Part shown: positions 6,624-54,307 of the stretch, in pieces
Position numbering within the stretch: the first letter of the stretch is position 1
How the letters are laid out: each line of letters opens with the position of its first letter
Assembly (NCBI GenBank): GCA_021814615.1
Contig: JAKAHZ010000004.1
Location: forward strand, 6,246-70,245
Origin: Nitrospirota bacterium
GTDB lineage: Bacteria; Nitrospirota; UBA9217
Reading direction: 5' to 3'
DNA length: 64,000 nucleotides
The notes under the pieces: generated by a model
What the model was told of the DNA's origin: nothing
Databases searched by the model: none
Seen by the model: only the letters and a program-made list of their open reading frames with translations
Translations under genes and position numbers: made by a program

Positions 6624-7066
6624 TGAAGAAGCTCATCTTTACGCTGCTGTTGCTGGCGAGCCTTCCTTTGCTGATAATCGTTCAGTATGCAAACGCCCAG
6701 AGCTATACGGGAGGAAAGCATCCCGTCGAAGTCTCCGCGCCGCCCATGTGCAGCCAGTGTCATTCCGACGGCAGGGCTTCCATGGACCATACGAGCGATT
6801 TTGGATCCAAACGGCATAAGTTCTATGCTGGACAGGACAGCCGGGCATGTGCTGCCTGTCACCGCGATGCTTTTTGCTCCGATTGTCATGCTCATAAGGA
6901 AGAGCTGAAGCCGAGCGACAAGTACCGTGACGCGCCGGAGCGGACGCTTCCTCATCGAGGCGATTATCTGAACCAGCATAAGATCGACGGCAGGATCAAT
7001 CCTACGTCATGCTACCCGTGCCATGGCCGTCAGAATAATGAGAGGTGCCGAGTATGCCACAAATAA
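6623..7066 (+). CDS. Periplasmic pentaheme c-type cytochrome
   Basis: Sec signal MKKLIFTLLLLASLPLLIIVQYANA. Five CxxCH motifs (CSQCH, CAACH, CSDCH, CYPCH, CRVCH). Translationally coupled to the upstream beta-barrel gene. Confidence 0.8.
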   Translation: MKKLIFTLLLLASLPLLIIVQYANAQSYTGGKHPVEVSAPPMCSQCHSDGRASMDHTSDFGSKRHKFYAGQDSRACAACHRDAFCSDCHAHKEELKPSDKYRDAPERTLPHRGDYLNQHKIDGRINPTSCYPCHGRQNNERCRVCHK

Positions 7067-27344: not shown

Positions 27345-27377
27345 GACGACGAAATCCTCCGTGAACAGGGATATCGA

Positions 27378-28187
27378 TCAGTATTTATGGCAGTTCTTGC
27401 ACAACTCCATCGGCGTGCGGGCGGGATACCGGAACAGCCTGACAGAGTCGGAACTGTGGGGATTGTGGCAGCTCGTACAGGAAAAGGGTTTGCCCTGACG
27501 GGCGGGATCCATCTTCTCCTTCTTTTTTCCTTCCGGTTCTTTTTTCTCCTTCTTTTCGGCCTTGGGCAGGCCCAGGGAATGCCCGTTGCCGCCGAACCCC
27601 GCGAGGGCATGGGGTCTCTTGGCGACTTCCTCATGGCAGTCGAGGCAGATCACGGACGGAGCCTTCTGAAGCAGGGCATAATTATCCGAGGAGTGGGGAT
27701 CGTGGCAGACCAGGCACATTTTATCCGCGACGGGCGGATGGACGTTCTTCTTCGTGAATTCCGCTTTGTCGTGGCAGTTCATGCACAGGTCGGGCACCGG
27801 AGCGATCAGGAGCTTCTCGTTGTCCGATGCATGGGGATTGTGGCATGCAGTGCAGCCCATGCCGATGGCAGCATGAACGACCGTGTGGGTAAACTTCGCC
27901 TTGTCGTGGCATCCATAGCAGAGCTCGGGCTGGTCCGCGGAAAGGCCTTTGGCGAAGGAGGTGGTTTTCTTGTGCGGCACCTTGAGCGCGTCATCGATGC
28001 CGCTGTGGCAAGCCGGGCAGCCCATGGAGACCGCAGCATGCACGACCTTCTTCTTGGCCGTGAGGCCGGCATGGCACTTGGAACAGTCGACCTCCTTCTT
28101 TGCCGGCGCTTCTGCAGCTGATGAGGGAAGGACGAAGAACAGGGAAACGATTGCCGCACTCAGGGCACAGCTGAGAAATCTGCGCAT
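27378..28187 (-). CDS. Multiheme c-type cytochrome (9 CxxCH), short paralog of the 595-aa repeat cytochrome
   Basis: Signal peptide present. Same diheme module and an identical C-terminus CKNCHKY. Confidence 0.85.
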   Translation of the reverse strand: MRRFLSCALSAAIVSLFFVLPSSAAEAPAKKEVDCSKCHAGLTAKKKVVHAAVSMGCPACHSGIDDALKVPHKKTTSFAKGLSADQPELCYGCHDKAKFTHTVVHAAIGMGCTACHNPHASDNEKLLIAPVPDLCMNCHDKAEFTKKNVHPPVADKMCLVCHDPHSSDNYALLQKAPSVICLDCHEEVAKRPHALAGFGGNGHSLGLPKAEKKEKKEPEGKKKEKMDPARQGKPFSCTSCHNPHSSDSVRLFRYPARTPMELCKNCHKY

Positions 28188-35524: not shown

Positions 35525-36130
35525 TCAATCCTGGGGTGATCGCCGTCTCTGGCCGTCGGGGTTCGGCCCCCTGCCGGGTCCCATGCCCTGGCCCATGCCG
35601 CGACCCTGTCCGCCGCCGCGCGCTCCCGTGATCAGGTCGCGCATCTCGCGCTGGAACTCCTGCTGGAAGATCAGGAACCGGGCCTGCTGTTCCACCGTGA
35701 GCAGCGTTCTGATATCCTTCAACTCGCGGTTCCTGAGCTCCTGCATGTCCCGGTGATTCTGCTCGATCCTGTCCAGGGCGCTCTTGAGCCGGTTGTCGTC
35801 GGGTTTCTGCGGCCTGAGCAGCGCGCGAAGCTCCTGCATGAGCTCCATCTGGCCCTTCATGATCTCCCGCCGCCTCTGGTCCTGGCTGCTCAGGATGGAC
35901 GAGAGTTTCGAACTCGTTGCATCGTCCAGCCTGAGCTCCTCCATCATCCGCCACATCCTCACCGCCTCGATCTTCTTCCTGATCTCCTCGCGCCGCTCCG
36001 GCGAAGGCTGGCTGTCGGCCCCGGGATCGGCGAATTCGCCGGGAGGGGGAGCCTGCCGCTGCTGCGCAGCGGCGGGAAGCCCGGAGAAGATCAAGAGCGA
36101 TGCAGCGATGAGAACTCGTGTCAGCTTCAT
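35525..36130 (-). CDS. Periplasmic LTXXQ-motif protein (CpxP/Spy family) with Gly/Arg-rich tail
   Basis: Signal peptide present. Repeated helical motifs and an LTVEQQ motif. Located downstream of the ECF sigma/anti-sigma pair. Confidence 0.55.
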   Translation of the reverse strand: MKLTRVLIAASLLIFSGLPAAAQQRQAPPPGEFADPGADSQPSPERREEIRKKIEAVRMWRMMEELRLDDATSSKLSSILSSQDQRRREIMKGQMELMQELRALLRPQKPDDNRLKSALDRIEQNHRDMQELRNRELKDIRTLLTVEQQARFLIFQQEFQREMRDLITGARGGGQGRGMGQGMGPGRGPNPDGQRRRSPQD

Positions 36131-36177
36131 GGTATGCCTCCTGAATGCGAGGGTCGTTCCGTCGATTCTATGCTCAA

Positions 36178-36843
36178 CTAACCTGAATAGTCACCAAGCG
36201 TACTCGTGCGCGGGTATTTCGCGCCTGATTTCTTTTCCTGTTTCAGCATGTGGTCCAGCCGGTCCAGTTCGCTGCTGCTGAGATCGGCGAGGTCTTCGGA
36301 CAGATCGCGTTCCGAGGTTTCGCGGAGATTCTCCGCGACCGCTTCCTTCACCGGAACGAAAGCATTCTCCGCCCACCGGGAGACTGCCTGGAACTCCTGC
36401 GAGGACAGTTCCGCGAGTTGCCCCGTATCGACCGTTTCTGTTTCGTCGATCGAGGCGACCAGACCGGTTGTCGGAAGAGGACCCGTGGTCTCCGTCCGGG
36501 ATTTGACCAGCACCCAGGAGAGGGAGGCCACCACGAGCAGGGCGGCAGCGGCCCAGGACAGGCGCGGGAGAGACCATTGGCCGAACACCCGGTCGAATAA
36601 TGACGGGGTGGGGGTGCGCTTTGTCTCCGCATCCCGCCTGACCCTTCCGGGCAGGACGGCCCAGAATGCCTCGCCGGGATCGGGGACCGCTTCCTCGGCA
36701 AGCATGCGCAGGAGTTCCAGTTCCGCGGAGCAGTCTTCGCAGGAACGGCAGTGCTCCTCGATCCGTAACCGGTCTGCCTGGCCGAGACCGTTCTCCAGAT
36801 AGGCGGGCAGGAGTTCCTTGTATTCGGGTTTTGCGCAGTTCAT
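36178..36843 (-). CDS. Anti-sigma factor (zf-HC2 zinc-finger, single TM)
   Basis: H..C..C motif EEHCRSCEDC. Central TM. The start overlaps the sigma-gene stop. Confidence 0.65.
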   Translation of the reverse strand: MNCAKPEYKELLPAYLENGLGQADRLRIEEHCRSCEDCSAELELLRMLAEEAVPDPGEAFWAVLPGRVRRDAETKRTPTPSLFDRVFGQWSLPRLSWAAAALLVVASLSWVLVKSRTETTGPLPTTGLVASIDETETVDTGQLAELSSQEFQAVSRWAENAFVPVKEAVAENLRETSERDLSEDLADLSSSELDRLDHMLKQEKKSGAKYPRTSTLGDYSG

Positions 36844-37427
36844 TGCGACCTCGTATCAGCGGAAGCCGGTTCCTTGTTTTCTGCGGGCTTGCTGCTCTCC
36901 TGTTCCTGCATCAGGACCTTCAGCTTCTGCACGCCGTGATGGAAATTCGCCTTTGCCGTGCCGATGGTGCAACCCAGGATGCCGGCGATCTCATCGAAGC
37001 TCTTCTGCTCCTGGATGCGGAGCATGACCGTAAGCCGCTGCTTTTCCGGCAAGGAGACGACGGACCGCCGCAGGCGGAGCCGCGTTTCCTTGCCGATCAG
37101 GGACTCGACGATCTTCGGGTCTCTCCGGATGACCACGTCGTCCAGGGAACAGCGCTGGATGACCTTCCGGTCCCGGTAGACGTTCTTCGCCAGGTTGATG
37201 GCGATCTGGTACAGCCAGGTTTTGAAGCTGGACCGCCGTTCGAACCCGCCGACGCCGGTGAAGGCCTTGACGAAGGTCTTCTGCAGCAGGTCCGCCGCGT
37301 CGTCCTGATCGCTCACCATCCGGTAGAGCATGGCGTAGAGCGGCTTCTGGTGCTTTCTGACCAGTTCATCGAAGGCTTCGCGGTCGCCGGCAGCATGGCG
37401 GTCCAGGAGCGCGCTGTCCTCATCCAT
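36840..37427 (-). CDS. ECF (sigma-70 family) RNA polymerase sigma factor
   Basis: Region 2 and region 4 signatures (FDELVRKHQKPLYAMLYRMV...; SFDEIAGILGCTIGTAKANFHHGVQKL). Start taken at the internal MDEDSALL. Confidence 0.8.
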   Translation of the reverse strand: MDEDSALLDRHAAGDREAFDELVRKHQKPLYAMLYRMVSDQDDAADLLQKTFVKAFTGVGGFERRSSFKTWLYQIAINLAKNVYRDRKVIQRCSLDDVVIRRDPKIVESLIGKETRLRLRRSVVSLPEKQRLTVMLRIQEQKSFDEIAGILGCTIGTAKANFHHGVQKLKVLMQEQESSKPAENKEPASADTRSQ

Positions 37428-37488
37428 AGGTACCCCGTTGTTTGATGGGTGAGACACGGTCGTGTGCAAAAGGTTGAATGCTGCCGGA

Positions 37489-39699
37489 TCAGACCTTCGC
37501 CGCGGGCGGGGCTGCGGCAGCGGCAGCCTCGCGGTGGAAGCAGACGCGGTTCCTGCCGTTCCGCTTGGCGTGGTAGAGCGCCTCGTCTGCGCAGGCAACC
37601 AGGATGTCGCGATTCTCCGTATCCTCGGGGAAGGCGGCGACGCCGATGCTCAGCGTGATTTTGAGTTCGCCGTCGAAGACCCGCGCGGCGACGGTCTGCT
37701 CCATGACCGCGCGGATGCGCTCGGCGATGAGCCCGGCGCCTTTCGCGTCCGTCTCGATCATGCCCACGGCGAACTCTTCGCCGCCGTAGCGGGCGACGAA
37801 GTCCGTGGCGCGGACCGTCTCCCGCAGTACCTTGGCGACGGCCTTGATGGCAAGGTCGCCCACGGGATGGCCGTACTTGTCGTTCACGCCCTTGAACTTG
37901 TCGATGTCCATGAGCAGGATGGAGAAGGGGCGGGGTGTGCGTTCCAACTCCTTGTACCGCTCGGCGAGCTTCTCCATGAAGGTCCGGTGGTTCAGGAGAC
38001 CCGTCAGGCCGTCGCAGCGCGCCATGTTCTCGATCTGTTCGAAGAGCTTGGCATTGGCCGCGACAAGCGATATCTGGTTCAGGAGCGTATCGAGCAGGCT
38101 GTCCCGCTGGTATTCGGAGAACGCAGCGGGCTTGAGCGACGAGAGGAAGACCGCCCCGAGAAAATTATTGTTCGTGACCAGGAGCCTGCCATACATGGAT
38201 CGGAGAGGGCGCTGCAGCTCCTTGAAGGGGAACAGCCCGATGTCCCTGCCACGGCTGCCGAAATCGGACGTATAGTATTTGCCGATCCGCTGTTCGGTCC
38301 AATGCTTGTGCATGTGGACCATGATGGCGCTCGCTTCCAGGGGGAATGTCTTGCCGAGGAAGCTTTTGTCGTAGCCATGGAGCCCGACGAACTGCAGGTT
38401 CTGCCCGCCTTCGGCCTCGGTCGCCAGCACGCAGGCGCCGAAATCAAATGGCACGACGCTCTGAATTTTCGGGATCACGGTGCTCATGATCTCTCCGAAC
38501 TTGAGGCTGTTGTTGAGGTCCGTGCTGATCTCGTGGAGCGCGCTGAAGTGATCGGCGCGTGCCTTGAGCTTGAGGGTTAGCGAGGTGTTCTCGATGATCT
38601 GCACGAAGAAGGGCGCGAAATTGTTCAGCATGTCCTGGTTCTCATCGGAGAACGCGCCCGGTTCCAGGCTGTCCACGGCGAGGACCGCAATGGCCTGATC
38701 GTTATTGACGATCGGCAGCATCAGCAACGACCGGACCGCCGGCAACCGGGCGTCTCCCCGATAGTAGCCGAGGTTGTCGAGGGGGGTGCCCAGCGCGGTG
38801 AGGTCCGAGATGTTCTGCGTCTGGCGCTGGTCCGCGCAGATGACGATGAGCTTCCTGCCGCTTTCGTCCGGGAGCGCGCCCAGCGGAAGAACGGCATCGG
38901 GGCTCTCGGTCCTGATCGCGCGAAGCGTGTACACGTCCGTCTCATCCCGGAATTCGCGGAGAAAGAGCGCGTAGGTATGGGCCGGCACGAAGCCGTAGAT
39001 CATGTCGATGAGGCCGTTGAAGGTGATCTCGCGCTGCTGCACCGACTGGAGATGGACGGCCCGCCGGTGGTCCGTGGAGAGAGATTGCAGTTCGCCGGTG
39101 ACAGCGAAGGGATCGACAGCATCGGCGCCCTTGATCAGCCGCTCGTGCGCGTCCCGGACCCTGTCCTCCTCGCGCAGGCGCTGACGGATGATGGAGCTGG
39201 TGGCCATGGAGACGCCGGCAAGGGCCACGGGATAGCCTGCGTACTTGTCCCACTGTGCAGGATCGAACTGGCGGCCCACATACAGGTTCGCTGACTCGAT
39301 GGCGATGACCAGGAGCACCATGGAGAGCGCCTGGGGAAGGCGGGAGAGGGAGGAGAACACGACGGCGAGGACGAAATAGGCCGGCCAGAGCGACGCGTGA
39401 GTCTCGCCAGCGAGCTGGATCACGAAGTTCAGGAGCACGACGCCCAGTACGATGAAACTGAACGGCAGGGGATAGAGCGGCGTCCCGGTGAAGACGAAGT
39501 CGTAGGTGCACCAGAGGAGGAGAAAGAGGTAGCCGGCGACCCAGGGGAAGAACCAGGAACTGGAGATTCCCGATTCGAGGAAGAGCCCGGCAGCGGCGAG
39601 AAAGGTGTAGACGATCAGACCGGCAGTCACCAGTCTTCTCACTGTTTGCGTCTCCTCAGCAGTTCCTCTTCCCGGTACTTGCGGTAGAGCACGTCCCAT
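37489..39699 (-). CDS. Membrane-anchored GAF-domain diguanylate cyclase (GGDEF)
   Basis: N-terminal multi-TM region, GAF-like regions, and a C-terminal GGEEF active-site motif with RYGGEEF context. Confidence 0.8.
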   Translation of the reverse strand: MGRALPQVPGRGTAEETQTVRRLVTAGLIVYTFLAAAGLFLESGISSSWFFPWVAGYLFLLLWCTYDFVFTGTPLYPLPFSFIVLGVVLLNFVIQLAGETHASLWPAYFVLAVVFSSLSRLPQALSMVLLVIAIESANLYVGRQFDPAQWDKYAGYPVALAGVSMATSSIIRQRLREEDRVRDAHERLIKGADAVDPFAVTGELQSLSTDHRRAVHLQSVQQREITFNGLIDMIYGFVPAHTYALFLREFRDETDVYTLRAIRTESPDAVLPLGALPDESGRKLIVICADQRQTQNISDLTALGTPLDNLGYYRGDARLPAVRSLLMLPIVNNDQAIAVLAVDSLEPGAFSDENQDMLNNFAPFFVQIIENTSLTLKLKARADHFSALHEISTDLNNSLKFGEIMSTVIPKIQSVVPFDFGACVLATEAEGGQNLQFVGLHGYDKSFLGKTFPLEASAIMVHMHKHWTEQRIGKYYTSDFGSRGRDIGLFPFKELQRPLRSMYGRLLVTNNNFLGAVFLSSLKPAAFSEYQRDSLLDTLLNQISLVAANAKLFEQIENMARCDGLTGLLNHRTFMEKLAERYKELERTPRPFSILLMDIDKFKGVNDKYGHPVGDLAIKAVAKVLRETVRATDFVARYGGEEFAVGMIETDAKGAGLIAERIRAVMEQTVAARVFDGELKITLSIGVAAFPEDTENRDILVACADEALYHAKRNGRNRVCFHREAAAAAAPPAAKV

Positions 39700-40332: not shown

Positions 40333-41391
40333 CTATGCGGGTTGGCAATGCGGTGATCCCTTGGAGGGGAAGAGCCGGGCCGCAGCCATCCAAATCAGGA
40401 GGGGCGCGACCATACCGAAGATGCGTGCGGACCAGAGAATCTTTGTGAGGAAAGCCGGGTCCGGCCCCCGCCACGCAAAGACGATGCCGGAACAAAGGAC
40501 GGTCAGAAGGTGCTGCAGCGAGAGCAGCAAGAAGCCTGTCGCGACACGTTTGGCCTGCGTCGCTCGTCGGACCGAGCGGGCATTCGCCGCGAAGAGCACC
40601 GACAAGAGCACGGCATTCAGGATATCGTAGGTAAGGTCGCTGTGCAGGGTGCCTGCCGCCGTTCGGAACAGGATGATCCTTCCCTCGGCGGAAACCGTGA
40701 GGCTGCTCGGGACGGCGCCGATGAGGGCGTTTGCCGTTGCGGCGATGAGTACCGCGTAGCGTTCGATCAGCAGATGAATGGCCCCGAACGCGGCGATGCT
40801 CGCGAGGATGCAGGAGAAGACCGTTCGCGCCGCCGCGCTGGTAAGCGGGATGCTCTTGTTGACCCAGAGGAACCAGGTCGCGAAGACGATGACGGCAAAT
40901 GCGCCCTGCAACAGGTAGACATGCACGAGGTCGAACAGGTTGTTTGCATAATGGCCTACCATGCCGAGTACGCCGATCCGCAATATGTTCAGGGCCATGA
41001 TGACGAAAAATCCGGTCAGAATCCCTGCAAGGCGGTAGGCGCGGGTGTGCGAACGGAACGGCAGCACGCCTGCGCAGTAGATGGCGAAATACTGAAGGGC
41101 GGTGCATTCATGGGTTATCTCCATGGGAAAGTCGTAGAGGGTCAGGATCGTTCCCGAGAGCGCGGCGGGAATAGAGAACAGGCTCCAGAACCGGTAAGCA
41201 AGATAGGCAGTAAAGGGCTTTACCCAGTCGAATATTCCCCAAGGAGACTGCGAAAGGCAGAAAAATGCCGTCAGGAAAAAAAGAAAGGTAAGGATGAACC
41301 TGCGGTCGATGCTGAAGAGGCGCGGTGTGTCGTTCTGATTCTGCATGGTTGCAAACGTCTCTGCCGGGGCGGCGGTCGTCTGAATTCGCAC
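40333..41391 (-). CDS. Exosortase/archaeosortase-family polytopic membrane protein (putative)
   Basis: About 8 TM segments. Conserved Cys/Arg/Asn context (THECTALQYF, ALNILRIGVLG). Lies immediately downstream of a protein bearing a C-terminal TM + Arg-cluster sorting signal. Confidence 0.45.
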   Translation of the reverse strand: MRIQTTAAPAETFATMQNQNDTPRLFSIDRRFILTFLFFLTAFFCLSQSPWGIFDWVKPFTAYLAYRFWSLFSIPAALSGTILTLYDFPMEITHECTALQYFAIYCAGVLPFRSHTRAYRLAGILTGFFVIMALNILRIGVLGMVGHYANNLFDLVHVYLLQGAFAVIVFATWFLWVNKSIPLTSAAARTVFSCILASIAAFGAIHLLIERYAVLIAATANALIGAVPSSLTVSAEGRIILFRTAAGTLHSDLTYDILNAVLLSVLFAANARSVRRATQAKRVATGFLLLSLQHLLTVLCSGIVFAWRGPDPAFLTKILWSARIFGMVAPLLIWMAAARLFPSKGSPHCQPA

Positions 41392-41448
41392 GGGCCGGGA
41401 TCGTTCAGGACCCCGGCCCGTCCGTGTCTTCTGGGTTGTGCTTCCCGG

Positions 41449-43182
41449 CTATGCTGATCGGTTCTTCCTGCCTCTCCTGCCGTTCATGACGGCCGCCAGG
41501 ACCATGGCGGCCGCGAGCACCGAATACAGGATGCGGTTGCCGGCAGGCGTGGCGGTCGTCATTACCGGCCCCGTCGCCACGGTCGATGTCACCGAGTTAC
41601 TCGTGACAGCCGTGTGGTTCGCGTCGGCGGCGGTTGTGACGCTCGTGGTCTCCGACTGGCCGTTGGTCGCTCCGGCGGGCGCGCTTACGGTCAGGGTCGC
41701 CGTCAGGAACGATCCACCCGCGTTGATCGGCCCTATCGACGCCGGCAGCGTCGAGGCGTTGAAGTTCGCGTTGGGAGTGGCCGGCAGGTCGGTACTCGAC
41801 AGAGAGAATGTGGTGGATCCGCACGCAAGCTGGGAGCTGTCATTGTTCGTTACCTGGATCGTATAGTTTATGGATCCTCCGGGGGCGACATTCTGCGATG
41901 CAGGGGTTAACGTGACCGTCGGATTGGCCCGCGTGCAGACCGGGGCCGTGATGGTCAGGGTCGCCGAGGCGGAGTCGTTGTACGTGGGGGTGCCGAGGCC
42001 CGATCCCGTGCCGCCCGTTACCCGGGCGGTCAGGGTGTTGGTCGTCGTTGCCGTCGCCTGAATGTCCAACGTGATGAGGTAGTTCGCGGTGGTCGTCGTG
42101 ACGCTCAGGGGCGTGCTGAACGTCAGCGTCGCCGAGTTTGTTCCGACCGTGTAGGTGACGCCCGAAACCAGCGTGTCGACGCCCGCATTGTACGCGCCGA
42201 GCGTGCCGGCGTCGTTATAGACGCTGATGTTCGCGACGTTGGCCGCGGTAAATTGCGCGCTCGTGGTCAGGACCAGGGTGTTGATCTGGCCGGTGCCCGA
42301 CGACAGGTACGCCGTGAAGCTGTCGATCGCGTTGTTGGCCGAGCCCTGCTGCGCATTCGCGTTCGCCACCGTCGCGCCGTTCCCCACAGAGAGGTTGCCG
42401 GATGCGACCGCGGGCAGGAACGTCGCGATTGAGCCCACCCACCAATTGCTGGCTGAAGAGGTCAAGGTGGCTGATGACGTTGCCGCCGAATTCGCGGTGT
42501 TGTCAGTCATGGCAGTTGAGACGTTGGTTGCGGACCGTGAAAGGTTCAGCGTCCAGGCGCCGTTGGTCCCGCCGGGCGTATTGAACGTCGCATTGCCGCC
42601 CACGGTGAAGCCGCCGATCAGCAGTTCGTTCGCCTGCGCTGTGGCTGCAGTGGTGCCTGACGATAGTGCCGTGCCCTGCGCGGCGGTATTGTTGATGGCT
42701 GTTTTGTCAAGGGGCGATGCCGTCAACACGCCGGAATACTCCTGCACCACGGCAGAGGTGTCCCAGGTGCCGATGGTCAGCGTCACCGTGGTCTGGCCCG
42801 CAGTAGTGTTCGGGCAATACCATATCGCGTGGTCTGAAGGCCCGCCTCCGTTCACGCCTGATGCGGCCGTCGCTTTGGCCCAGGTGCATCCGCCGCCGCT
42901 CACGGCCGTGACGCCGCCGGCAGCCGCGTCATTGGTTCCCGCTACGAGGATAAGAGTATCTCCGGCGGCCGTCGACGGGATCGTGACCGCTAGGCTGGTA
43001 CAGGAGACGCAGGAATTCGTTCCCCCCGTGCCCACCCGCGCCGCAGCTGAGGCCGCGGAGGGGCTATACGCCTGATGTGCAAAAACGCCGAGAAGCAGGG
43101 TGATCGTCATGGCGAAACGGCTCGTCGGCCGATGTTGCCAATTACTCAAACTCAGACTGGTCCTTCGCGAGGATCTGTTCAT
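41449..43182 (-). CDS. Secreted Thr/Ala/Ser/Gly-rich low-complexity protein with C-terminal TM + RRGRK sorting signal (putative exosortase substrate)
   Basis: SD aaggagg sits 7 nt before the ATG at 43180-43182. Signal peptide present. C-terminus ...TPAGNRILYSVLAAAMVLAAVMNGRRGRKNRSA. Confidence 0.6.
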   Translation of the reverse strand: MNRSSRRTSLSLSNWQHRPTSRFAMTITLLLGVFAHQAYSPSAASAAARVGTGGTNSCVSCTSLAVTIPSTAAGDTLILVAGTNDAAAGGVTAVSGGGCTWAKATAASGVNGGGPSDHAIWYCPNTTAGQTTVTLTIGTWDTSAVVQEYSGVLTASPLDKTAINNTAAQGTALSSGTTAATAQANELLIGGFTVGGNATFNTPGGTNGAWTLNLSRSATNVSTAMTDNTANSAATSSATLTSSASNWWVGSIATFLPAVASGNLSVGNGATVANANAQQGSANNAIDSFTAYLSSGTGQINTLVLTTSAQFTAANVANISVYNDAGTLGAYNAGVDTLVSGVTYTVGTNSATLTFSTPLSVTTTTANYLITLDIQATATTTNTLTARVTGGTGSGLGTPTYNDSASATLTITAPVCTRANPTVTLTPASQNVAPGGSINYTIQVTNNDSSQLACGSTTFSLSSTDLPATPNANFNASTLPASIGPINAGGSFLTATLTVSAPAGATNGQSETTSVTTAADANHTAVTSNSVTSTVATGPVMTTATPAGNRILYSVLAAAMVLAAVMNGRRGRKNRSA

Positions 43183-43343
43183 GAGAGTTCCTCCTTGTTT
43201 TTTCCGAACGTACAAAAACCCTCAAAATGCTCGCTCATGCAAGACTCGAAAACGTGTGCAGGGAACTCAGACGTAACATCAGAGGATTCCACCGAACACT
43301 TGGAAATGAACCTGAGCGAGACCGGGACGGTTACGGGAAAAAC

Positions 43344-43757
43344 TTAGGACGGGAATGGGGGGGAGAGACCTGAGTAGGGAAGTCGCGTTCGTTGGAGACA
43401 GGAGAATCTCGCGTCATCGAGGCGAGAATAATGGATCAATAACGGCGCTGGCAGCGGCCGTTCTATGGGGATTGCGGCGGCAAATTGTGCTTTGGCTTTT
43501 GATACTGTCCTGCTGGCACCGTGGAAGCGGGTGTCATTATCGATGCCGCATAAGTAGTGAGGGGCCGATGCAAGGAGAACCGAAAGGCTGAATGATTGAT
43601 GTTCATTCAGCCTTTCATCGTCGTCATTGTCGTCGAGGTATTCATTGAAAGCGTAGGCGAGAGGGGTCTCATCCGAGATCGCATCGATAGAGATCCCGAA
43701 GAATACAGCGATGATCAGGAAGGAAACTGTAAGGAATCGAAGGATCCTGTCGGTCAT
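43344..43757 (-). CDS. Hypothetical small acidic membrane-anchored protein
   Basis: N-terminal TM FLTVSFLIIAVFFGI followed by an acidic tract. No family recognised. Confidence 0.3.
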   Translation of the reverse strand: MTDRILRFLTVSFLIIAVFFGISIDAISDETPLAYAFNEYLDDNDDDERLNEHQSFSLSVLLASAPHYLCGIDNDTRFHGASRTVSKAKAQFAAAIPIERPLPAPLLIHYSRLDDARFSCLQRTRLPYSGLSPPFPS

Positions 43758-44227: not shown

Positions 44228-44839
44228 TTGAGAAAAGACGACACGAGGCGATTTCTGCTTGACGCGATGTTGAAACTTGTCTCAGAGAGGGGCTATGCCG
44301 GCGCCAAAACGCGTGATGTTGCTGCGGAAGCGGGCGTGACAGAATTGACCCTCTTCAGGCATTTCGGGTCGAAGGAGAGGATGTTCGAGGAAGTCTTGAA
44401 GAACTATACGTTCATTCCGCGGTTCAAGAATCTCATGCCTGAACTGGCAGGTCTTTCCGCGGAGGACGCCATCGAACTGATCGCTTCGCGGTATCTCGAA
44501 ACACTGCTCGAGAGGAAACCGCTCATCAAGATATTGCATGCAGAGGTGCACACCTATCCGGAGAGCATCAGGACCGTCTATAACAATTTCATGCGTGAGA
44601 TGCAGGGTACGCTATCGGCCTACATTCAGTCGTTACAGAAGCAGGGCATCCTGAACCACGACATGTCGGCAATCATCGCGTCCCGCATGTTTTTGTGGGT
44701 GCTTTTTTCCTATTTCCGGACCGAAGTGATTATGAACAATGGGGGCGTGAAAAAGAAGGATGTCCGGGAGATCGTCAGGATCTTCTCCCGGGGGGTGCTT
44801 CCGAGAACGTCGGGGGCGGACGGCGGCGGGGCCTCATGA
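44228..44839 (+). CDS. TetR/AcrR family transcriptional regulator
   Basis: HTH GYAGAKTRDVAAEAGVTELTLFRHFGSKERMF. Confidence 0.85.
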   Translation: MRKDDTRRFLLDAMLKLVSERGYAGAKTRDVAAEAGVTELTLFRHFGSKERMFEEVLKNYTFIPRFKNLMPELAGLSAEDAIELIASRYLETLLERKPLIKILHAEVHTYPESIRTVYNNFMREMQGTLSAYIQSLQKQGILNHDMSAIIASRMFLWVLFSYFRTEVIMNNGGVKKKDVREIVRIFSRGVLPRTSGADGGGAS

Positions 44840-47684: not shown

Positions 47685-50600
47685 ATGCACAGGCATTTCT
47701 ATCGGAAAAACCATGTCCCGTATTTCATGGCATTGTTCGTTCTTCTTTTCTCGCTCTTTGCTTGCGGCGGAGGGGGAGGGGGCGGCGGCAGCGCGAACGA
47801 TGGCTTGAACACCGGCGGCACCACGACCAATCCCGGCGACACGATCGCCACGGGTCAGGCCAAGATCACCGGCACGGTCCAGCCGGATCCCAACAGCCCC
47901 ACGTCGGCAGCAGGCCAGAACTCAGGCGCCACGGTATATGTCGTCGGCCAGCAGGACAAGGCTGCGACGACCGATGCCAACGGCAACTTCACGCTCACCG
48001 TGGACGCCACGCTCACGGGCACGGTCCTGTCCAGCCCCAAGGGCTTCTTCGCTTCGCTCTTCAAGGCAGCGGGGGACGTGAAGCAGTACGGCCTCGTTGT
48101 TATCAGCTCCCAGAACAGCCACGGAAGAAAGACGGAAGTGCAGGTCACCGAGGGGCAGGCGAACAGCCTCGATACGATCTATATCAACACGGTCGGCTCG
48201 ATCACGGGCAAGGCATACCTCCAGGGCCAGACGGACCACACGGGTATCCGGGTCTACATCCCCGGCACCTCTTTCCAGGCCACGACGGATGCGAACGGGA
48301 ACTACAACATGACCGGTGTGCCCTCCGGCACCTATGACATCGTGCGGGCGGACTACCCCGGCACGGTCTATCACTATGCCGCGGTGGCGAAGGTCACGGT
48401 AGCATCGAATCAGGCGACCGCGCTTCCCGACATGCTGCTGCAACTGTCCACCGGACCGAATGGCAGCATCCTGATCAACAAGGGGGATGCCTACACCACG
48501 TCCAAGACCGTCACTGTGTCCATCGCGCCGAGCGCCAACGCCGTGCTGATGATGGTTTCGGAAGATATCAATTTCCAGGGAATTAGCTGGGAGCCGGTAT
48601 CCGCTGCGAAACAATACACCTTTGCAGGTTCATACGACGGCGGGAGCACCGCAAGGATTTATGCGCGGTTCTCGGATAGCAGCGCCCTGGAGAGCACGCC
48701 GGTCTCTGATGACATCTTCATCGATACGAATCCGCTTGCCACGATCACATCCCCGGTGAATTCAGGCGTCATCTCCGATACCAAACCGGCCTTCAACTGG
48801 AAATATGCACCGGCCGTCCAGATGCCGAACGCCCGGTATCACATCCAACTGACCACGGTGGCTGATACGGGTTTTTCCTCACCGCTGGCAGACGCGACGA
48901 CAGCTGCTAATGTTACGCAATATGCCTATGCCGGAGCGGCGCTGAATAATCTGAGCGGCTATATCTGGCGCGTGGCGATGGTTGACGAGGCAGGGAAACA
49001 ATGGAGCTGGGCAGGACCATGGTCTTTTTCGATCGATCTGAGCACGGTCACGCTGTTGAAACCGGATTTTGGCTCATATGTCAATAAGGCTGCGAACGAC
49101 ACAGGCATCACCTTCATGTGGCAGGCGAATGCGAATGCCTCCACCTATGAGCTTGCGTTGTGTCGAAACGATGCAAGTCTGTCCTGCGGAACGGCATATA
49201 CGGTAACTGCGCCCGGCATCAGCAAGCAGATATTGCCGATCAGTACAGGTGATGGTTTATATAATTGGGCTGTAACGCCGATCGACGCAAACGGAGTCAG
49301 GGGTAAGCGATCCGATGTGTGGCAATTCGATCTTGACAAGACCGTTCCGGGAATCGTTCTTGTCAGTCCATCGGGTGGCGCGCAGAACGTATCAAAACTG
49401 TCCCCGATCACCGTGCAGTTTGACGACGCTTTAGACGGCTCTACGATCATCAGCCCCGCGACGAATTTCACGCTGAACAGCGGAGCCGTTCCGGGAACCG
49501 TAAGCTATTCAGTATCCGCAAATACCGCGACATTCACCCCGGCAAGCACGCTGGGCTTCGGAGTGACCTATGCGGCCACCGTTACGACAGCGATAAAGGA
49601 CCCGGCAGGAAACGCTCTCTTCTCCGGACAGACATGGACCTTTTCCACGAAGAACGTTCCTGAACAGTGGACGTTTGCTGCCGATGGCGGATCGTCAAGT
49701 TTGAACTACAGTACTGCCAACGAAGCGGATACGCCGCAAATGGCTGTTCTCGGCAATGGTTTGTTCGCCTTCTGGTCGGAAGCAGGAAATATTCGCGGCT
49801 CGGTTTATAGCGGAAGTACCTGGTCGTTCATCGATGGTGGCGGAGCGACAAGTACCATATCAAGCGCCGGCGGATATCCCCGGCCTGCCGTGTACGGCAA
49901 TGAGTTGTACTTGTTGTGGATATCCGGTGGAACCGTCAACATGAAGAAATACGATGCAAACGGTTCCTGGACTTCTGTTTCAGGCGGTGCAATGGGATTC
50001 AATTATGATTATATGAAAACGTCCAGTGGAAATGCCATTGCAGCTGCCAACAAACTCTATGCGATATGGAGCGAAAATAACAATTCGAGTATTTTGCAGA
50101 TTCGGGCGAAAGTGTATACTGCGGGAACGTTCTCGTTCATTGACGGCGGAGGCGCGAATGGGATTAATTATGATCCTACTCGTATTACCAGCGGTTCGCC
50201 TGCGGCTGTCGCGATGAATGACAAGCTGTATATTGCATGGACGGAAAGGAATGTCTCAGGAATCGATCAGATCAGGATAAAGGTGTACAACGACAGTACT
50301 GCGACGTGGTCGTTCATTGATGGCGGCGGCGCGAACGGAGTGAATGCTGACGGGACGAAAAACGCAGCGTATCCTTCGCTGGCTTTCATGGGCAATACGC
50401 TTTATGCTTCATGGGCCGAGCAGGGTGCGTCTGTAAATCAGATTCGGGTCGCTGCATATTCGAGCGGGACCTGGTCGTTTATCGATAACGGTGGCATAAA
50501 CAAGAGTCCGACGAATCAAGCGTGCAATCCTAAGCTTGCTGTCTTGAGCGGAGTGCTCTATGCAACCTGGGCGGAAGGAATGTGCATATATGATCCGAAT

Positions 50601-50810
50601 GGAGATGAAATTCGAGTTGCGGCATTCGGCAATGGGTCATGGGCATTCGTGGATGGCGGAGCAGTAACGGGGCTGAATCTTGATTCTACGAAAATGGCCT
50701 ATGCGCCTCAGATTACGATCTATAACAATAAACCCTATATAACGTGGGCTGAAACGAATGCCAGCACGGGCACATCGCATAATCAAGCATTGGTAAAGGT
50801 CGGGCAGTGA
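47685..50810 (+). CDS. Large surface lipoprotein paralog 1 (poly-Gly linker, CarboxypepD_reg-like domains, Ig/FN3-like domains, C-terminal beta-propeller-like WSFIDGGG repeats)
   Basis: Lipobox LFSLFAC followed by GGGGGGGG. N-terminal ~330 aa shared with the two downstream paralogs. Six C-terminal repeats of the form LY..W.E...IR...Y...TWSFIDGGG. The start may instead be the internal MALFVLL. Confidence 0.75.
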   Translation: MHRHFYRKNHVPYFMALFVLLFSLFACGGGGGGGGSANDGLNTGGTTTNPGDTIATGQAKITGTVQPDPNSPTSAAGQNSGATVYVVGQQDKAATTDANGNFTLTVDATLTGTVLSSPKGFFASLFKAAGDVKQYGLVVISSQNSHGRKTEVQVTEGQANSLDTIYINTVGSITGKAYLQGQTDHTGIRVYIPGTSFQATTDANGNYNMTGVPSGTYDIVRADYPGTVYHYAAVAKVTVASNQATALPDMLLQLSTGPNGSILINKGDAYTTSKTVTVSIAPSANAVLMMVSEDINFQGISWEPVSAAKQYTFAGSYDGGSTARIYARFSDSSALESTPVSDDIFIDTNPLATITSPVNSGVISDTKPAFNWKYAPAVQMPNARYHIQLTTVADTGFSSPLADATTAANVTQYAYAGAALNNLSGYIWRVAMVDEAGKQWSWAGPWSFSIDLSTVTLLKPDFGSYVNKAANDTGITFMWQANANASTYELALCRNDASLSCGTAYTVTAPGISKQILPISTGDGLYNWAVTPIDANGVRGKRSDVWQFDLDKTVPGIVLVSPSGGAQNVSKLSPITVQFDDALDGSTIISPATNFTLNSGAVPGTVSYSVSANTATFTPASTLGFGVTYAATVTTAIKDPAGNALFSGQTWTFSTKNVPEQWTFAADGGSSSLNYSTANEADTPQMAVLGNGLFAFWSEAGNIRGSVYSGSTWSFIDGGGATSTISSAGGYPRPAVYGNELYLLWISGGTVNMKKYDANGSWTSVSGGAMGFNYDYMKTSSGNAIAAANKLYAIWSENNNSSILQIRAKVYTAGTFSFIDGGGANGINYDPTRITSGSPAAVAMNDKLYIAWTERNVSGIDQIRIKVYNDSTATWSFIDGGGANGVNADGTKNAAYPSLAFMGNTLYASWAEQGASVNQIRVAAYSSGTWSFIDNGGINKSPTNQACNPKLAVLSGVLYATWAEGMCIYDPNGDEIRVAAFGNGSWAFVDGGAVTGLNLDSTKMAYAPQITIYNNKPYITWAETNASTGTSHNQALVKVGQ

Positions 50811-50846
50811 TCACGTGCTGTGTATCAGGAAGACAGGAATACATTC

Positions 50847-50874
50847 GAGGGGCCTTCGGGCCCCTTTTTTTATT
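50847..50874 (+). terminator. Rho-independent terminator after paralog 1
   Basis: Hairpin gaggggcc-ttcg-ggcccc followed by tttttttatt. Confidence 0.8.
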
Positions 50875-51012
50875 TGGTTCATTTTTGGGAATGGTCTCAA
50901 ACCACAGATTGATATCGCCGAAAAATACCCCGGCATTCTGTGAATTATCCCTTGACCGGAAATGCAGGATAATGAATAATACGGCCCACTGTAGAGCTAT
51001 TCCAGTTCGTCG

Positions 51013-54000
51013 TTGCCGATCAGTCGGCGAAGCACTAGGAGGAACCGTATTATGGATCGTCGGAAACACGTATCACTCTGGACGTTGACTGCCCTTATCA
51101 TCGCACTATCCCTTATTCTCACCGCATGCGGAGGCGGAGGGGGCGGCGGCGGAAGCACTGACGGCACGACGTCGGGCTCGACCAACACAACCACGTCGAC
51201 GGGTCCCACGGGAACGAATCCCGATGTCATTCCCGCGGGCCAGGCCAAGATCACCGGCACCATCCAGCCCGATCCGGCGGACACCTCGGCCAACGGCCAG
51301 CAGGCCGGCGCATCGGTCTATGTCATCGGTCAGCAGAACAATGCTGCGACCGCTGACGCGAACGGCAATTTCACCCTCACCGTCGACGCTACGCTCACCG
51401 GCACGATCCTGCAGGCCCCGTCGTTCTGGGCCAAGATCTTCGGCGCAACGGCGACGGCCAAGCAGTTCGGCCTCGTGGTGCTGAGCTCGGCAAAAGGCCA
51501 CGGCAAGAAGACCGAGGTACAGGTGACCGAAGGCCAGGTTAATACGCTCAACACGATCTACATCAACACGGTGGGCCAGATCTCGGGCAAGGCATTCCTC
51601 CAGGGCCAGGCGGACCACACAGGCATCCGCGTCTACATCCCCGGCACCTCCTTCCAGGCAACGACCGACGCTGCGGGCAACTATGTGATGAGCAACGTAC
51701 CGTCGGGCAGCTACGACCTGGTTCGCGCGGACTATCCGGGGACTGTGTATCACTATGCCGTGGTCGCGAAAGTTACGGTCAGCACGAACGCAACAACGAC
51801 GCTGCCCGATATGCTCCTGCAGACCAATGTGGGTGCAAGCGGCAGCGTGTTGATCAATAATGGAGCCGCATACACGACTTCAGCCGCAGTGAAGCTCTCC
51901 ATTGCGCCAACGGATAGTGCAGTGCTGATGGCGGTGTCCGAAGACGCATCTTTTACCGGCACGCTGACCTGGGAGCCCGTGACGCCGACGAAGAACTATA
52001 CCTTCTCCGGTTCTTATTCCCCGGGGAAAACTGCGAACATCTATGTGAAATTCGCCGACATGAGCGGTCTTCCTACCGCGGGGTCTGCTTCCGCTTCCAT
52101 CTATATTGACACCGATCCGAAGGCGACGGTTACTGCGCCGGTGAATGCGGGCACCATCGCAAACACGAAGCCCCAGCTTTCCTGGTCCTATACACCGCCC
52201 ATGCCGAGCCCCAAATACCACGTGCAGGTGGCTACCGATGCTGCTTTTGCGTCGATTGTGGCCGGCCAGGATCAGACAAACTTGACCCAGGCGCAGTACA
52301 CGCTCTCATCGGCGATTCAGCAGGGGACCTATTACTGGCGGGTAGCAATCATCGATAGCGCCGGTACGCAATGGAACTGGGCGGGACCCTGGTCCTTCAC
52401 GATCAACCTGAGCTCGGTTACCCAGAACGCTCCTGCGAACGGCAGCTTCACCATGGTTACGACGCCCACGCTGACCTGGAGCGCCAACCCGAATGCAGCC
52501 TCCTACATCGTGAGCCTGGCGACAAACTCGGCGCTTACCGGCAGCACGACGTTTACGACCGCGCAGACCAGTTACACGCTTCCCGCGCAGGCAGACGGAA
52601 CGTATTATTGGGCAGTCACGCCGGTAGATATCTTCAGCATCCAGGGAACCCGTTCCACGGTATGGAGCCTGGTGATCGACACGACGGCGCCGGCGGGCAG
52701 CGTCGTGATCAATGAGAAACCGCTGGTCAGCAGCACGAGCTCGACCATGGGTGCGACGGTCACGCTCCAGCTCTCGGCAACCGACACCTACGGCGTTGCG
52801 GCGTACTTTACCCGGGGGTATATCGGCACACCGCCGCTTGCGGATGATCCGGGTTGGGTCTCTATCACGAACGCTCCCACGAACTATTCCGCACCGAATG
52901 TTTCGTTCACACTTTCTGCGGGGAGTGGTGTGAAATACGCTTATGTGTGGTTCAAAGACCAGGCAGGCAACGTCTCGGCTTCGCCGGTTTCGGACACAAC
53001 CAAGCAGATTGCCTTTTCTGCAATGACCGCGTACTCGAACGCCGCCAGGGATGTCGGCAAGTATCCAACCATGAAGATCGACAGCGGTGGCCGGCCCTAT
53101 CTTGGCTATTACGATTTGGATACCGCGACAGGGTTCGGCAGGCTTTCGTATACGCTTGTCACGAGCATAAGCAACTTCCCTAATATGAGCTGGAATACTC
53201 CGAATGTCGTCGACAGCCAGGCGAATACAGACATCGGGAGATGGTCGTCGATGGTTGTGGTCCCGAACTATGCGTTCTTCAGCTACCATGACGTTACGAA
53301 CACCAAACTGAAATTCGCCAGTTGCGTCTTGTCGTGCACGACCTACACGGTTGACTCCGGTTCATTCAGGAACCTCGGAAGATACTCTTCCCTGGCAATT
53401 CAGTCCGGAGCGACCTATACCGCACATATCAGCTATCTCGACTATAATGGCGGTGGACCGAATACCAATTTGAAATATGCCGCCGGCTTGAATAGTTCCT
53501 GGACTGTTACAACCCTTGATAGCACCACCAATGCTACGACTGCCAGTGTGAATGATCCTACGTCGATAGCCCTCGACGTAAACAATAAGGCGCATATCAG
53601 TTACACCGGCGGGGGGATCTGGGCGCTGAAATACGCCACAAACTCGTCCGGTACGTGGACGGTAAATCAGCTGGACTCGAAGGGATATAAATCGGCAATC
53701 GCGGTCGAGGCAACAACACCTCCCAAGGTTCATATCAGCTATTCGGGGACGGGAGGTATCAAATATGCCACCAATGCATCCGGTTCCTGGGTCACGACCG
53801 TCGTTGACGGAACAACTACAGCCGGCGCCGAGAAGACGGGTATTTTCATCGATGACCTCGGCTATGTACACATTGTGTATGTCTCGTCATTCAACGGGGA
53901 TCTGATGTATGCCACGAATAGATACGGTTCATGGACCCCTGTCCTGATCAATCCATCGTCGGCAACGTCAACTTTCGAGTCGCCGTCAATTGTGATCGAT

Positions 54001-54105
54001 ATGTCGACAGATATAATGTATGGGTTCAAACACAACTATGTACATATTGGTTACTATGATAGCTTTAACAAGAAAGCGATGCATTCCTACACGCAGTTGC
54101 CGTAG
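51013..54105 (+). CDS. Large surface lipoprotein paralog 2 (same N-terminal architecture, divergent C-terminal propeller with HI.Y...LKYATN repeats)
   Basis: Lipobox LILTAC followed by GGGGGGGG. N-terminus near-identical at protein level to paralog 1. Different C-terminal repeat family. Confidence 0.75.
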   Translation: MPISRRSTRRNRIMDRRKHVSLWTLTALIIALSLILTACGGGGGGGGSTDGTTSGSTNTTTSTGPTGTNPDVIPAGQAKITGTIQPDPADTSANGQQAGASVYVIGQQNNAATADANGNFTLTVDATLTGTILQAPSFWAKIFGATATAKQFGLVVLSSAKGHGKKTEVQVTEGQVNTLNTIYINTVGQISGKAFLQGQADHTGIRVYIPGTSFQATTDAAGNYVMSNVPSGSYDLVRADYPGTVYHYAVVAKVTVSTNATTTLPDMLLQTNVGASGSVLINNGAAYTTSAAVKLSIAPTDSAVLMAVSEDASFTGTLTWEPVTPTKNYTFSGSYSPGKTANIYVKFADMSGLPTAGSASASIYIDTDPKATVTAPVNAGTIANTKPQLSWSYTPPMPSPKYHVQVATDAAFASIVAGQDQTNLTQAQYTLSSAIQQGTYYWRVAIIDSAGTQWNWAGPWSFTINLSSVTQNAPANGSFTMVTTPTLTWSANPNAASYIVSLATNSALTGSTTFTTAQTSYTLPAQADGTYYWAVTPVDIFSIQGTRSTVWSLVIDTTAPAGSVVINEKPLVSSTSSTMGATVTLQLSATDTYGVAAYFTRGYIGTPPLADDPGWVSITNAPTNYSAPNVSFTLSAGSGVKYAYVWFKDQAGNVSASPVSDTTKQIAFSAMTAYSNAARDVGKYPTMKIDSGGRPYLGYYDLDTATGFGRLSYTLVTSISNFPNMSWNTPNVVDSQANTDIGRWSSMVVVPNYAFFSYHDVTNTKLKFASCVLSCTTYTVDSGSFRNLGRYSSLAIQSGATYTAHISYLDYNGGGPNTNLKYAAGLNSSWTVTTLDSTTNATTASVNDPTSIALDVNNKAHISYTGGGIWALKYATNSSGTWTVNQLDSKGYKSAIAVEATTPPKVHISYSGTGGIKYATNASGSWVTTVVDGTTTAGAEKTGIFIDDLGYVHIVYVSSFNGDLMYATNRYGSWTPVLINPSSATSTFESPSIVIDMSTDIMYGFKHNYVHIGYYDSFNKKAMHSYTQLP

Positions 54106-54174
54106 CCAAAGTAGCGTCAAGAGAAATATTTATTAACCCGACGTCGTCGGATATGGCATCGCAATAGCTGAATG

Positions 54175-54209
54175 AAAAGCCCGGGAGAATATCTCCCGGG
54201 CTTTTCTTG
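54175..54209 (+). terminator. Rho-independent terminator after paralog 2
   Basis: Hairpin gcccgggaga-atat-ctcccgggc followed by ttttcttg. Confidence 0.7.
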
Positions 54210-54307
54210 TTTCAGGTCCTTTTCACCGGGAATTATCACTTGACCTTCCGGGCGACTTGTTCAATAATAGCAGCCATCTCTAATGTACCCTGTCTTGGGG
54301 AGGGACC

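Follow-up and report, generated by a model that had tools for sequence, protein, structure and literature searches.

A tandem exosortase/archaeosortase-family protein and its neighbor with a PAG-type C-terminal signal: a candidate sorting cassette in Nitrospirota

Introduction

Does an exosortase-like membrane protein act on the low-complexity secreted protein encoded next to it, and on that protein alone? This question is raised by a locus of a Nitrospirota bacterium (assembly GCA_021814615.1; GTDB lineage Bacteria; Nitrospirota; UBA9217), located within a stretch of 64,000 nt of contig JAKAHZ010000004.1 (positions 6,246 to 70,245 of the forward strand; from here: the window). The original prediction, made from the letters of the window, had suggested a polytopic exosortase/archaeosortase-like protein (from here: the sortase) that is paired with a single secreted target (the cargo) ending in the tripeptide PAG, a hydrophobic helix and a basic cluster. 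Here we report that the enzyme belongs to the exosortase/archaeosortase superfamily and that the cargo tail is a conserved signal, tied to this sortase and portable between unrelated passengers. Together with a gene for a small protein with a C-terminal GLSPP motif, which lies beyond the coordinates considered originally, the genes for cargo and sortase probably form a self-contained three-gene sorting cassette of an uncurated subfamily, in which the sortase would cut at or next to PAG.

Enzymes of the exosortase and archaeosortase type occur widely, yet to our knowledge there is almost no biochemistry on them. They are most readily approached through new subfamilies in which one enzyme is clearly paired with one substrate. 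In NCBIfam, Pfam and the literature searched, we found no description of a PAG-type CTERM signal, of the subfamily or of its accessory proteins.

Results

The sortase belongs to the superfamily and to none of its curated subfamilies

The sortase open reading frame (ORF) 40333..41391 exists on the minus strand as predicted, but its start is more likely an internal one. Met16 (ATG 41346) is the start shared by all homologs and by the NCBI record MDA8099066.1, and the GTG at 41391 falls within a 13-bp GC hairpin; therefore, the real gene is probably 40333..41346, encoding 337 aa. The protein scored 42.2 bits against the generic exosortase/archaeosortase signature TIGR04178 (cutoff 23) and 30.0 bits against the Pfam family PF09721 (cutoff 25.7), and TIGR04178 matched all 39 family representatives. 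Only residues ~30 to 180 of the sortase are covered by exosortase/archaeosortase models. The catalytic triad inferred for this superfamily is made up of a nearly invariant Cys, Arg and His (Haft preprint, 10.1101/2023.06.07.544157). Among the 39 full-length members, which are 20–47% identical to the query, C81, A83, N120, R123, H142 and W161 were invariant (P0001 numbering; C81, N120, R123 and H142 correspond to C96, N135, R138 and H157 of the 352-aa ORF), and the latter four were also invariant in a 3-sequence alignment. The passed cutoffs and the invariant Cys, Arg and His bear out the exosortase-family call.

XrtH (TIGR04177) was the best-matching named subfamily model, aligned over the full length of its 158 positions with 64.6 bits (E 1e-17; 64.8 bits for the 337-aa form), below its cutoff of 86. 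The other subfamily models fell short of their cutoffs as well: ArtB with 50.2 bits (cutoff 150), XrtX with 45.8 (170), XrtM with 33 (125), ArtE with 31 (95), and the rest lower. XrtH was the best named model for all 39 members (best E 2e-23); as estimated from the E-values, with a per-member XrtH bit score given for P0001 only, all 39 lie under its curated cutoff. Weak matches to the ArtA model were found for 4 of the 39 members and to the XrtA model for one. Hence, the enzyme stands outside XrtH, ArtB, XrtX, XrtA and every other curated subfamily. The NCBI names of the members, where given, are the generic “archaeosortase/exosortase family protein” and once “hypothetical protein”.

A search of 5.8 billion proteins returned two relatives at 45–47% identity, one from a Nitrospiraceae metagenome-assembled genome (MAG) and one, P0002, from a Joint Genome Institute (JGI) metagenome. 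With the first query, 185,579 species-representative genomes yielded no relative. When 1.84 billion representatives were searched with a profile, ~50 proteins of 300–360 aa matched the sortase over its whole length, and many proteins of 160–200 aa matched its N-terminal half only. Locus scans of genomes and metagenomes gave no match with three close sortases and succeeded with a 13-sequence alignment; the alignment of 39 sequences was too diverse for designing a scan pattern.

A tail with invariant proline and glycine accompanies the sortase in 17 distinct loci

Within the window, the two-gene arrangement is as had been described, with the 577-aa protein encoded upstream of the sortase on the same strand and ending in T-PAG-N-R-ILYSVLAAAMVLAAVMNG-RRGRKNR-SA, where the motif starts 32 residues from the end and the basic cluster ends 2 residues from it. 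In both close relatives (L001 and L005), the gene immediately upstream of that for the sortase, in the same orientation, likewise encodes a large secreted protein, with the C-termini ...TQSPAGNAYVYAVLAAGMVLFVTQRSRKKRAETR and ...TKSPAGGPLVFGLLSFGMLVYGVIRNRRAVK, respectively. More generally, all 17 distinct loci for which upstream DNA was available have a tail-bearing ORF directly upstream of the sortase gene and in its orientation, with unrelated flanks. These 17 loci, with sortases down to ~28% identical, comprise eight of the fused type, which have the layout of the window, and nine of a sister branch.

In the fused type, the motif is PAG in 7/8 loci and PVG in 1/8, while the chance of a PAG at a fixed site is ~0.06–0.1% per protein of the target's composition. 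Since the sister-branch tails (PLG in three and PVG in six of the nine distinct loci) join these, the family-wide signal reads [S/T/V]-P-[A/L/V]-G-[G/N/S], followed by a transmembrane (TM) helix and a basic cluster, with P and G invariant in 17/17. The conserved motif in homologous targets that the original prediction called for is thus present, even on unrelated passengers. Its non-PEP character also held, as no curated model of the PEP, PGF, PEF, IPTL or VPXXXP type matched the tails. No NCBIfam sorting-signal model, GlyGly-CTERM included, matched them at E ≤ 10, a search in which the HMMER filters may drop very weak hits of short models.

The passengers differ widely. The window cargo and its L001 orthologue are 50% identical and have related bodies, while the alignment with the Calx-beta cargo of L005 has 23% identity and only the tail is common to the two. 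The cargo proteins of L005, L011, L017 and L020 carry or resemble Calx-beta domains, and that of L012 is different again. Three further proteins (P0165–P0167) share the N-terminal body of the window cargo and have neither a sortase neighbor nor a tail.

Haft has listed attributes of sorting signals, of which 1 and 3 to 8 were found here. The motif (attribute 3) is constant to the extent given above, its central and flanking positions being limited to [STV], [ALV] and [GNS]; a hydrophobic segment of TM length and then a basic cluster occur in all tails (attributes 4 and 5). N-terminal hydrophobic segments were seen by inspection on the window, L001 and L005 cargo proteins and on the six of the nine sister-branch mini-proteins described below that were read whole (attribute 6). 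Bearers that share the signal only (the window versus L005 and L012) and the tail-less homologs P0165–P0167 correspond to attributes 7 and 8. As to attribute 2, several signals per genome, there is one tail in the 64-kb window, and its adjacency alternative is realized in 17/17 loci.

The single target that had been proposed was found within the 64-kb window, which contains no second such tail, and within 277 kb of related loci (2,734 ORFs), where the tail pattern matched cassette ORFs only; to these the result is limited. It is possible, albeit unlikely, that the sortase/substrate pair is real, yet that further PAG-type proteins elsewhere in the genome are processed as well and the neighbor is merely the linked one. 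Most exosortase/archaeosortase systems serve several targets, as attribute 2 expresses, and the scan of the source genome covered 64 kb. This is opposed by the strict adjacency, by the lack of a second tail in the window and the 277 kb, and by the rule of Haft that regular occurrence of the enzyme with its target in consecutive genes marks dedicated systems. We regard the pairing of enzyme with signal as well supported; its one-to-one exclusivity we infer.

Properties of the cargo

From the first TTG, the target ORF spans 41449..43215 (588 aa), the NCBI call of 553 aa begins at Met25, and the ATG at 43182 gives 577 aa. The latter is the best call because an AAGGAGG Shine-Dalgarno sequence is located 7 nt upstream of this ATG. 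In the source MAG, the three cassette proteins are MDA8099066.1 to MDA8099068.1, with the locus tags M0042_05520/05525. The composition (T 17.7%, A 15.9%, S 11.3%, G 9.7%, N 8.1%; sum 62.7%) leaves only 5.9% of charged residues, and no Pfam or NCBIfam domain matched. In an AlphaFold2 (AF2) model with a predicted local distance difference test (pLDDT) of 45, helices are placed at residues 20–38 and 548–576. In the L001 orthologue, a classical signal peptide ends in AQA. Tat export by way of the SSRRTS stretch of the cargo appears unlikely, as the hydrophobic region begins ~17 residues past the RR pair.

The sortase is a tandem of an apparently active and a degenerate module

An AF2 model of the sortase built from the 39-sequence alignment (pLDDT 91.1; predicted template modeling score 0.79) has nine long helices, and the order of helices, three short strands and long helices occurs in it twice. 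A hydropathy scan gave nine windows above threshold, two of them overlapping neighbors, and it is no independent count of TM helices. When compared by hhalign to a profile of 70 short hits (155–215 aa, most of them unassignable to any named subfamily), the N-terminal half matched with a probability of 100% (E 1e-47) and the C-terminal half with 95.3% (E 2.4e-8) over 166 collinear columns, while reversed-sequence controls remained at ≤1.3% (E 0.04–0.12). The two halves matched each other directly with 40–43% (E 4e-5 to 3e-4). Because the C-terminal half matches the sortase profile but shows no conservation at the positions aligned with the catalytic Cys, Arg and His, we regard it, from these alignments, as a degenerate duplicate fused to an apparently active sortase module. 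It is kept in the ~50 representatives of 300–360 aa and is probably a built-in partner or substrate-docking module. No relative with a solved structure was found by sequence search or Foldseek. Such a natural tandem of an active and an inactive module raises the possibility that XrtH, ArtB and other short sortases function as dimers.

A third cassette gene and a hairpin between cargo and sortase genes

The GLSPP protein consists of an N-terminal hydrophobic segment, an acidic stretch and the C-terminal G-L-S-P-P...S. Its homologs have 137–161 aa, and their C-terminal S/T-G-x-S-P-P is invariant; no Pfam or NCBIfam family matched. The gene precedes the cargo gene in the window, L001, L005, L011, L017 and L019 and is located 3′ of the sortase gene in L021. 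L012 lacks it, and so do the sister-branch loci apart from the hybrid L021. Among the copies, that of the window diverges most (18–25% identity) and has a lower GC content at third codon positions (0.58). The GLSPP protein was also considered as the true substrate and was ruled out, as it is without a tail of TM helix and basic cluster and is absent from L012 and most sister-branch loci.

Within the GLSPP ORF (43581..43617, minus strand), we noticed a perfect 15-bp inverted repeat, TGAAAGGCTGAATGA / TCATTCAGCCTTTCG, which sits exactly where the window copy departs from its homologs (these read ...VLIKKKR... at that place). The repeat may stem from a small insertion or act as a regulatory hairpin.

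The spacer hairpin between the cargo and sortase genes has a z-score of −4.26, and 0/200 shuffled sequences folded as well. Hairpins with stems of ~10–20 bp and unrelated sequence occur in the same spacer of L001, L005, L011 and L012; in total, a GC hairpin without U tract was present in 5/5 fused-type loci folded, the one of L012 having 18 bp and a z-score of −6.9. This element is probably an intra-operon attenuator or mRNA stabilizer that would uncouple the level of the cargo from that of the enzyme. Promoter and terminator scans gave nothing above the shuffled expectation.

The sister branch carries the signal on a free-standing mini-protein

The sister-branch sortases, 28–40% identical over the aligned part, stem from Geomonas sp. 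RF6 (CP087999.1), Geobacter MAGs and mostly from metagenome contigs. Seven of the nine distinct loci (L006–L008, L010, L014–L016) have a four-gene cassette. Its first gene encodes a very variable large secreted protein of 233 to 3,671 aa without a TM tail, with S8 peptidase, RCC1, Fn3-associated and other domains. It is followed by genes for a secreted protein of ~175 aa, for a mini-protein of ~66 aa and for the sortase. The mini-protein consists of a signal peptide, a GPPxPP linker, the motif T/V-P-[L/V]-G-G/N, a TM helix and KSRR. Its gene overlaps the start of the sortase gene by 19–26 nt in four loci and is elsewhere a few bases to ~120 bp apart from it; in L009 and L013 it was not called, and the L009 copy was found by translation. 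The ~175-aa protein, of no known family, has a conserved …DGYDNAYDTISPGNLNA… and ends in EQP, extended in L024 to …EQPKSGD. The large secreted proteins next to these sortases, otherwise unrelated, end in a conserved Trp/Tyr-rich domain of ~85 aa (KPGWTM...NW.IDG...YWWNG.TYDSW...PWKGYW.LNLD..H.LTIQ), to which no Pfam or NCBIfam family corresponds and which could bind the Pro-rich mini-protein. This domain lies mid-protein in L009, and in L024 the contig ends before the large gene. L021 (4201–8461) has the hybrid order sortase, GLSPP protein and cargo with the Trp-rich C-terminal domain, on a contig that ends before any mini-protein; together with L019, which is of the fused type with PVG, it bridges both cassette layouts.

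The main rival to cleavage arises here: the tail could be a permanent membrane anchor or partner helix that docks to the sortase-like protein, for instance to its inactive module, and stays uncleaved. P-x-G would then be a helix-capping or docking element, and the catalytic residues would act on something else. We judge this improbable. The nine sister loci with a free-standing tail protein, overlapping the sortase start in four cases, have a layout typical of subunits, and the large sister-branch cargo without tail and the conserved non-catalytic second module point in the same direction. However, it is characteristic of cleaved sorting signals that a motif abuts a TM helix and an Arg/Lys cluster follows, the set of Cys, Arg and His is intact in 39/39 members, and the strong hairpin between the fused-type cargo and enzyme genes suggests unequal stoichiometry.

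The sister motifs end in Gly-Gly (PLGG or PVGG) and thus superficially resemble GlyGly-CTERM, which raises the idea that another enzyme, such as a rhombosortase, a CAAX protease of the myxosortase type or a signal peptidase, cuts the tail while the exosortase homolog is functionally unrelated. This is very improbable, given that the adjacency to the exosortase homolog is kept across two phyla with otherwise unrelated flanks. Moreover, the called-gene tables of the loci contain no rhomboid or CAAX-protease gene, no curated sorting-signal model matches the tails, and these have no invariant Cys.

Finally, the subfamily might represent a modular two-piece system for surface anchoring instead of a simple cut-and-release sortase, a tentative reading to which we give minor weight. 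From the mini-protein, processing by the sortase could yield a Pro-rich anchor or adaptor to which the cargo would dock or be ligated via its aromatic C-terminal domain. The fused cargo-plus-tail of the window would then be the “Rosetta stone” form, and the inactive module a docking site for the second partner. If true, a two-piece anchor would be more interesting than a simple sortase.

Genomic surroundings

The genes flanking the cassette are not conserved between loci. In the window, the neighbors are an extracytoplasmic function (ECF) sigma/anti-sigma pair, a GGDEF cyclase, DUF507, TetR and DUF2232 genes, ribosomal genes, cytochromes and Ig-like proteins. A nearby exopolysaccharide (EPS) locus, the search for which had been recommended, was not found on the flanks to ~15 kb: the Pfam annotation of 19.8–37.4 kb and 44.2–61.5 kb is without glycosyltransferase, polysaccharide-export and chain-length genes, and an EPS association was rejected on this basis. 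The divergent TetR gene 44228..44839 was considered as a cassette regulator and discarded, as it is conserved in no related locus.

Several other features of the window were noticed. Directly downstream of the cassette and two DUF507 genes, on the same strand, lies a signaling cluster (35525..39699, minus strand) that is not conserved in related loci; it encodes a diguanylate cyclase of the GAF-GGDEF type whose N-terminus is polytopic, an ECF sigma factor, an anti-sigma factor with zf-HC2 and a periplasmic Metal_resist protein (Spy/CpxP-like). A tandem of three secreted proteins (1041, 1030 and 990 aa; 47685..57280, plus strand) has CarboxypepD_reg-like and Rha78A-N Ig-like domains, in the first also Big_5, and none of the three has a sorting tail. 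The stretch 25557..28187 (minus strand) encodes two multiheme cytochromes, one of 595 aa with 11 Paired_CXXCH stretches and one of 269 aa with 4 of them, and then a DUF4382 protein. The product of 57415..58059 (minus strand) resembles the nucleotidyltransferase of the AbiEii type IV toxin-antitoxin system.

Table 1. Positions of the cassette features in the window and of their counterparts in related loci
Feature	Locus	Position	Strand	Remarks
Sortase ORF	Window	40333..41391	−	352 aa from GTG; polytopic membrane protein; NCBI MDA8099066.1 has 337 aa
Sortase C-terminal module, pseudo-sortase	Window	40333..40848	−	Residues 182–352; diverged sortase fold without Cys/Arg/His
Sortase N-terminal active module	Window	40849..41346	−	Residues 16–181 of the 352-aa ORF; TIGR04178, PF09721; invariant C/N/R/H
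Putative catalytic residues	Window	Cys96 41104..41106; Asn135; Arg138 40978..40980; His157 40921..40923	−	352-aa numbering; codons verified
Target-to-sortase spacer hairpin	Window	41390..41421	−	GC-rich 13-bp stem, no U tract
Target/cargo gene	Window	41449..43182	−	577 aa; secreted, beta-rich, Thr/Ala/Ser/Gly/Asn-rich; MDA8099067.1
Basic cluster RRGRKNR	Window	41458..41478	−	Putative cytoplasmic stop-transfer; equivalent R/K cluster in all related tails
Hydrophobic TM segment ILYSVLAAAMVLAAVMNG	Window	41479..41532	−	18 residues
Signature motif T-P-A-G	Window	41539..41550	−	Residues 545–548; abuts the hydrophobic segment
N-terminal export signal region	Window	43039..43182	−	MNRSSRR...FAMTITLLLGVFAHQAYSPSAASAAA; read from the sequence by inspection
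Small GLSPP accessory protein	Window	43344..43757	−	137 aa; MDA8099068.1; third cassette gene
Motif VPAGN	L011			Scan locus; sortases 30–37% identical
Motif VPAGS	L012			Scan locus; sortases 30–37% identical
Motif VPAGN	L017			Scan locus; sortases 30–37% identical
Motif VPAGN	L020			Scan locus; sortases 30–37% identical
Motif VPVGN	L019			Scan locus; sortases 30–37% identical; fused type
Mini-protein	L006	7796-7996		Directly upstream of two-module sortase (as for all mini-proteins below)
Mini-protein	L007	7801-7998
Mini-protein	L008	7813-8019
Mini-protein	L010	7823-8026
Mini-protein	L014	1573-1776
Mini-protein	L015	1584-1796
Mini-protein	L016	5823-6026
Mini-protein	L024	865-1059
Mini-protein	L009	~5590-5815
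~175-aa secreted protein	L006	7274-7786		Between giant cargo and mini-protein (as for all ~175-aa proteins below)
~175-aa secreted protein	L007	7258-7788
~175-aa secreted protein	L008	7276-7800
~175-aa secreted protein	L009	5040-5582
~175-aa secreted protein	L024	335-862
Trp/Tyr-rich domain	L006	~7000-7260
Trp/Tyr-rich domain	L007	~7000-7261
Trp/Tyr-rich domain	L008	~7010-7271
Trp/Tyr-rich domain	L010	~7020-7282
Trp/Tyr-rich domain	L021	~8200-8461

Discussion

Proposed mechanism and its weight

According to the reading that we consider most probable, the cargo would be exported via its N-terminal signal by Sec, and its C-terminal helix would keep it in the inner membrane, RRGRKNR facing the cytoplasm. 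T-P-A-G would thereby be positioned at the outer face of the membrane, where the adjacent polytopic enzyme could recognize it. Cys96, assisted by Arg138 and His157, would cut at or next to PAG, upon which the helix and the basic tail would be lost. The new C-terminus might be released or, in analogy to archaeosortase A, be transferred to a membrane or envelope moiety, while the spacer hairpin would keep the cargo abundant and the enzyme scarce. In this scheme, which follows the precedent of archaeosortase A and PGF-CTERM, cleavage, its site, the topology and the fate of the new C-terminus are inferred, and the roles given to the pseudo-module, the GLSPP protein and the hairpin are likewise proposals.

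Several points weigh against this scheme. Family-wide, only two motif residues (P and G) are invariant, and there may be other targets elsewhere in the source genome. The AF2 model of the cargo rested on a 5-sequence alignment and, with its low pLDDT, was not used for a fold search. Furthermore, the processed product of the sister branch would only be a Pro-rich peptide of ~15–20 residues, which fits a simple release of cargo poorly and hints at a different role of the tail.

The P-A-G, P-V-G and P-L-G motif extends the known specificity code. The cassette is compact, includes uncharacterized accessory proteins and has a relative in a complete Geomonas genome. It provides a basis for annotation models that name “hypothetical” surface proteins in Nitrospirota and, according to the named records, in Geobacter and Geomonas.

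Comparison with known systems

XrtH (TIGR04177) is paired with the IPTLxxWG-CTERM signal according to its TIGRFAMs description. Among the named subfamilies, it scores best with the N-terminal module; however, the sortase of the window is twice as long owing to the second, inactive module, and its signal is [STV]-P-A-G-[NGS] and not IPTLxxWG. ArtB (TIGR04144, “archaeo_VPXXXP”) provides the second-best model, and the motifs of both systems start with a beta-branched residue followed by Pro. In contrast, ArtB is a short, single-module archaeal enzyme with a different motif, whereas the window sortase is a tandem that scores far below the ArtB cutoff.

Archaeosortase A, the member that has been studied experimentally, acts on the PGF-CTERM tail of the Haloferax volcanii S-layer glycoprotein, from which the C-terminal helix is removed and to which a lipid is attached (10.1101/2023.06.07.544157). 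Common to both are the superfamily, the Cys/Arg/His site, a tripartite signal abutting a TM helix and a Thr/Ser-rich, probably glycosylated cargo. The motif, however, is PGF in the one, with many targets, and PAG in the other, and because the host of the window system is a diderm bacterium, the fate after cleavage must differ from that in the archaeal system. XrtA/EpsH usually lies within EPS loci and has many PEP-CTERM proteins as its targets (10.1101/2023.06.07.544157). It shares with the window system the superfamily, the bacterial host and a low-complexity Thr/Ser-rich cargo, whereas the window has no EPS genes within ~15 kb of the cassette and a single linked target, and neither a PEP motif nor a match to a PEP model was found. 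GlyGly-CTERM signals are cleaved by rhombosortase (10.1101/2023.06.07.544157); here, the motif is PAGN instead of GG, and no rhomboid gene is present in the gene tables of the loci.

The system most resembles the dedicated one-enzyme/one-target cassettes of Haft, in which, as in every locus studied here, enzyme and target come from consecutive genes. It differs from them in its motif, in the tandem architecture of the enzyme and in components without a curated counterpart, namely the GLSPP protein and, in the sister branch, the ~175-aa protein, the signal on a mini-protein and the Trp-rich domain.

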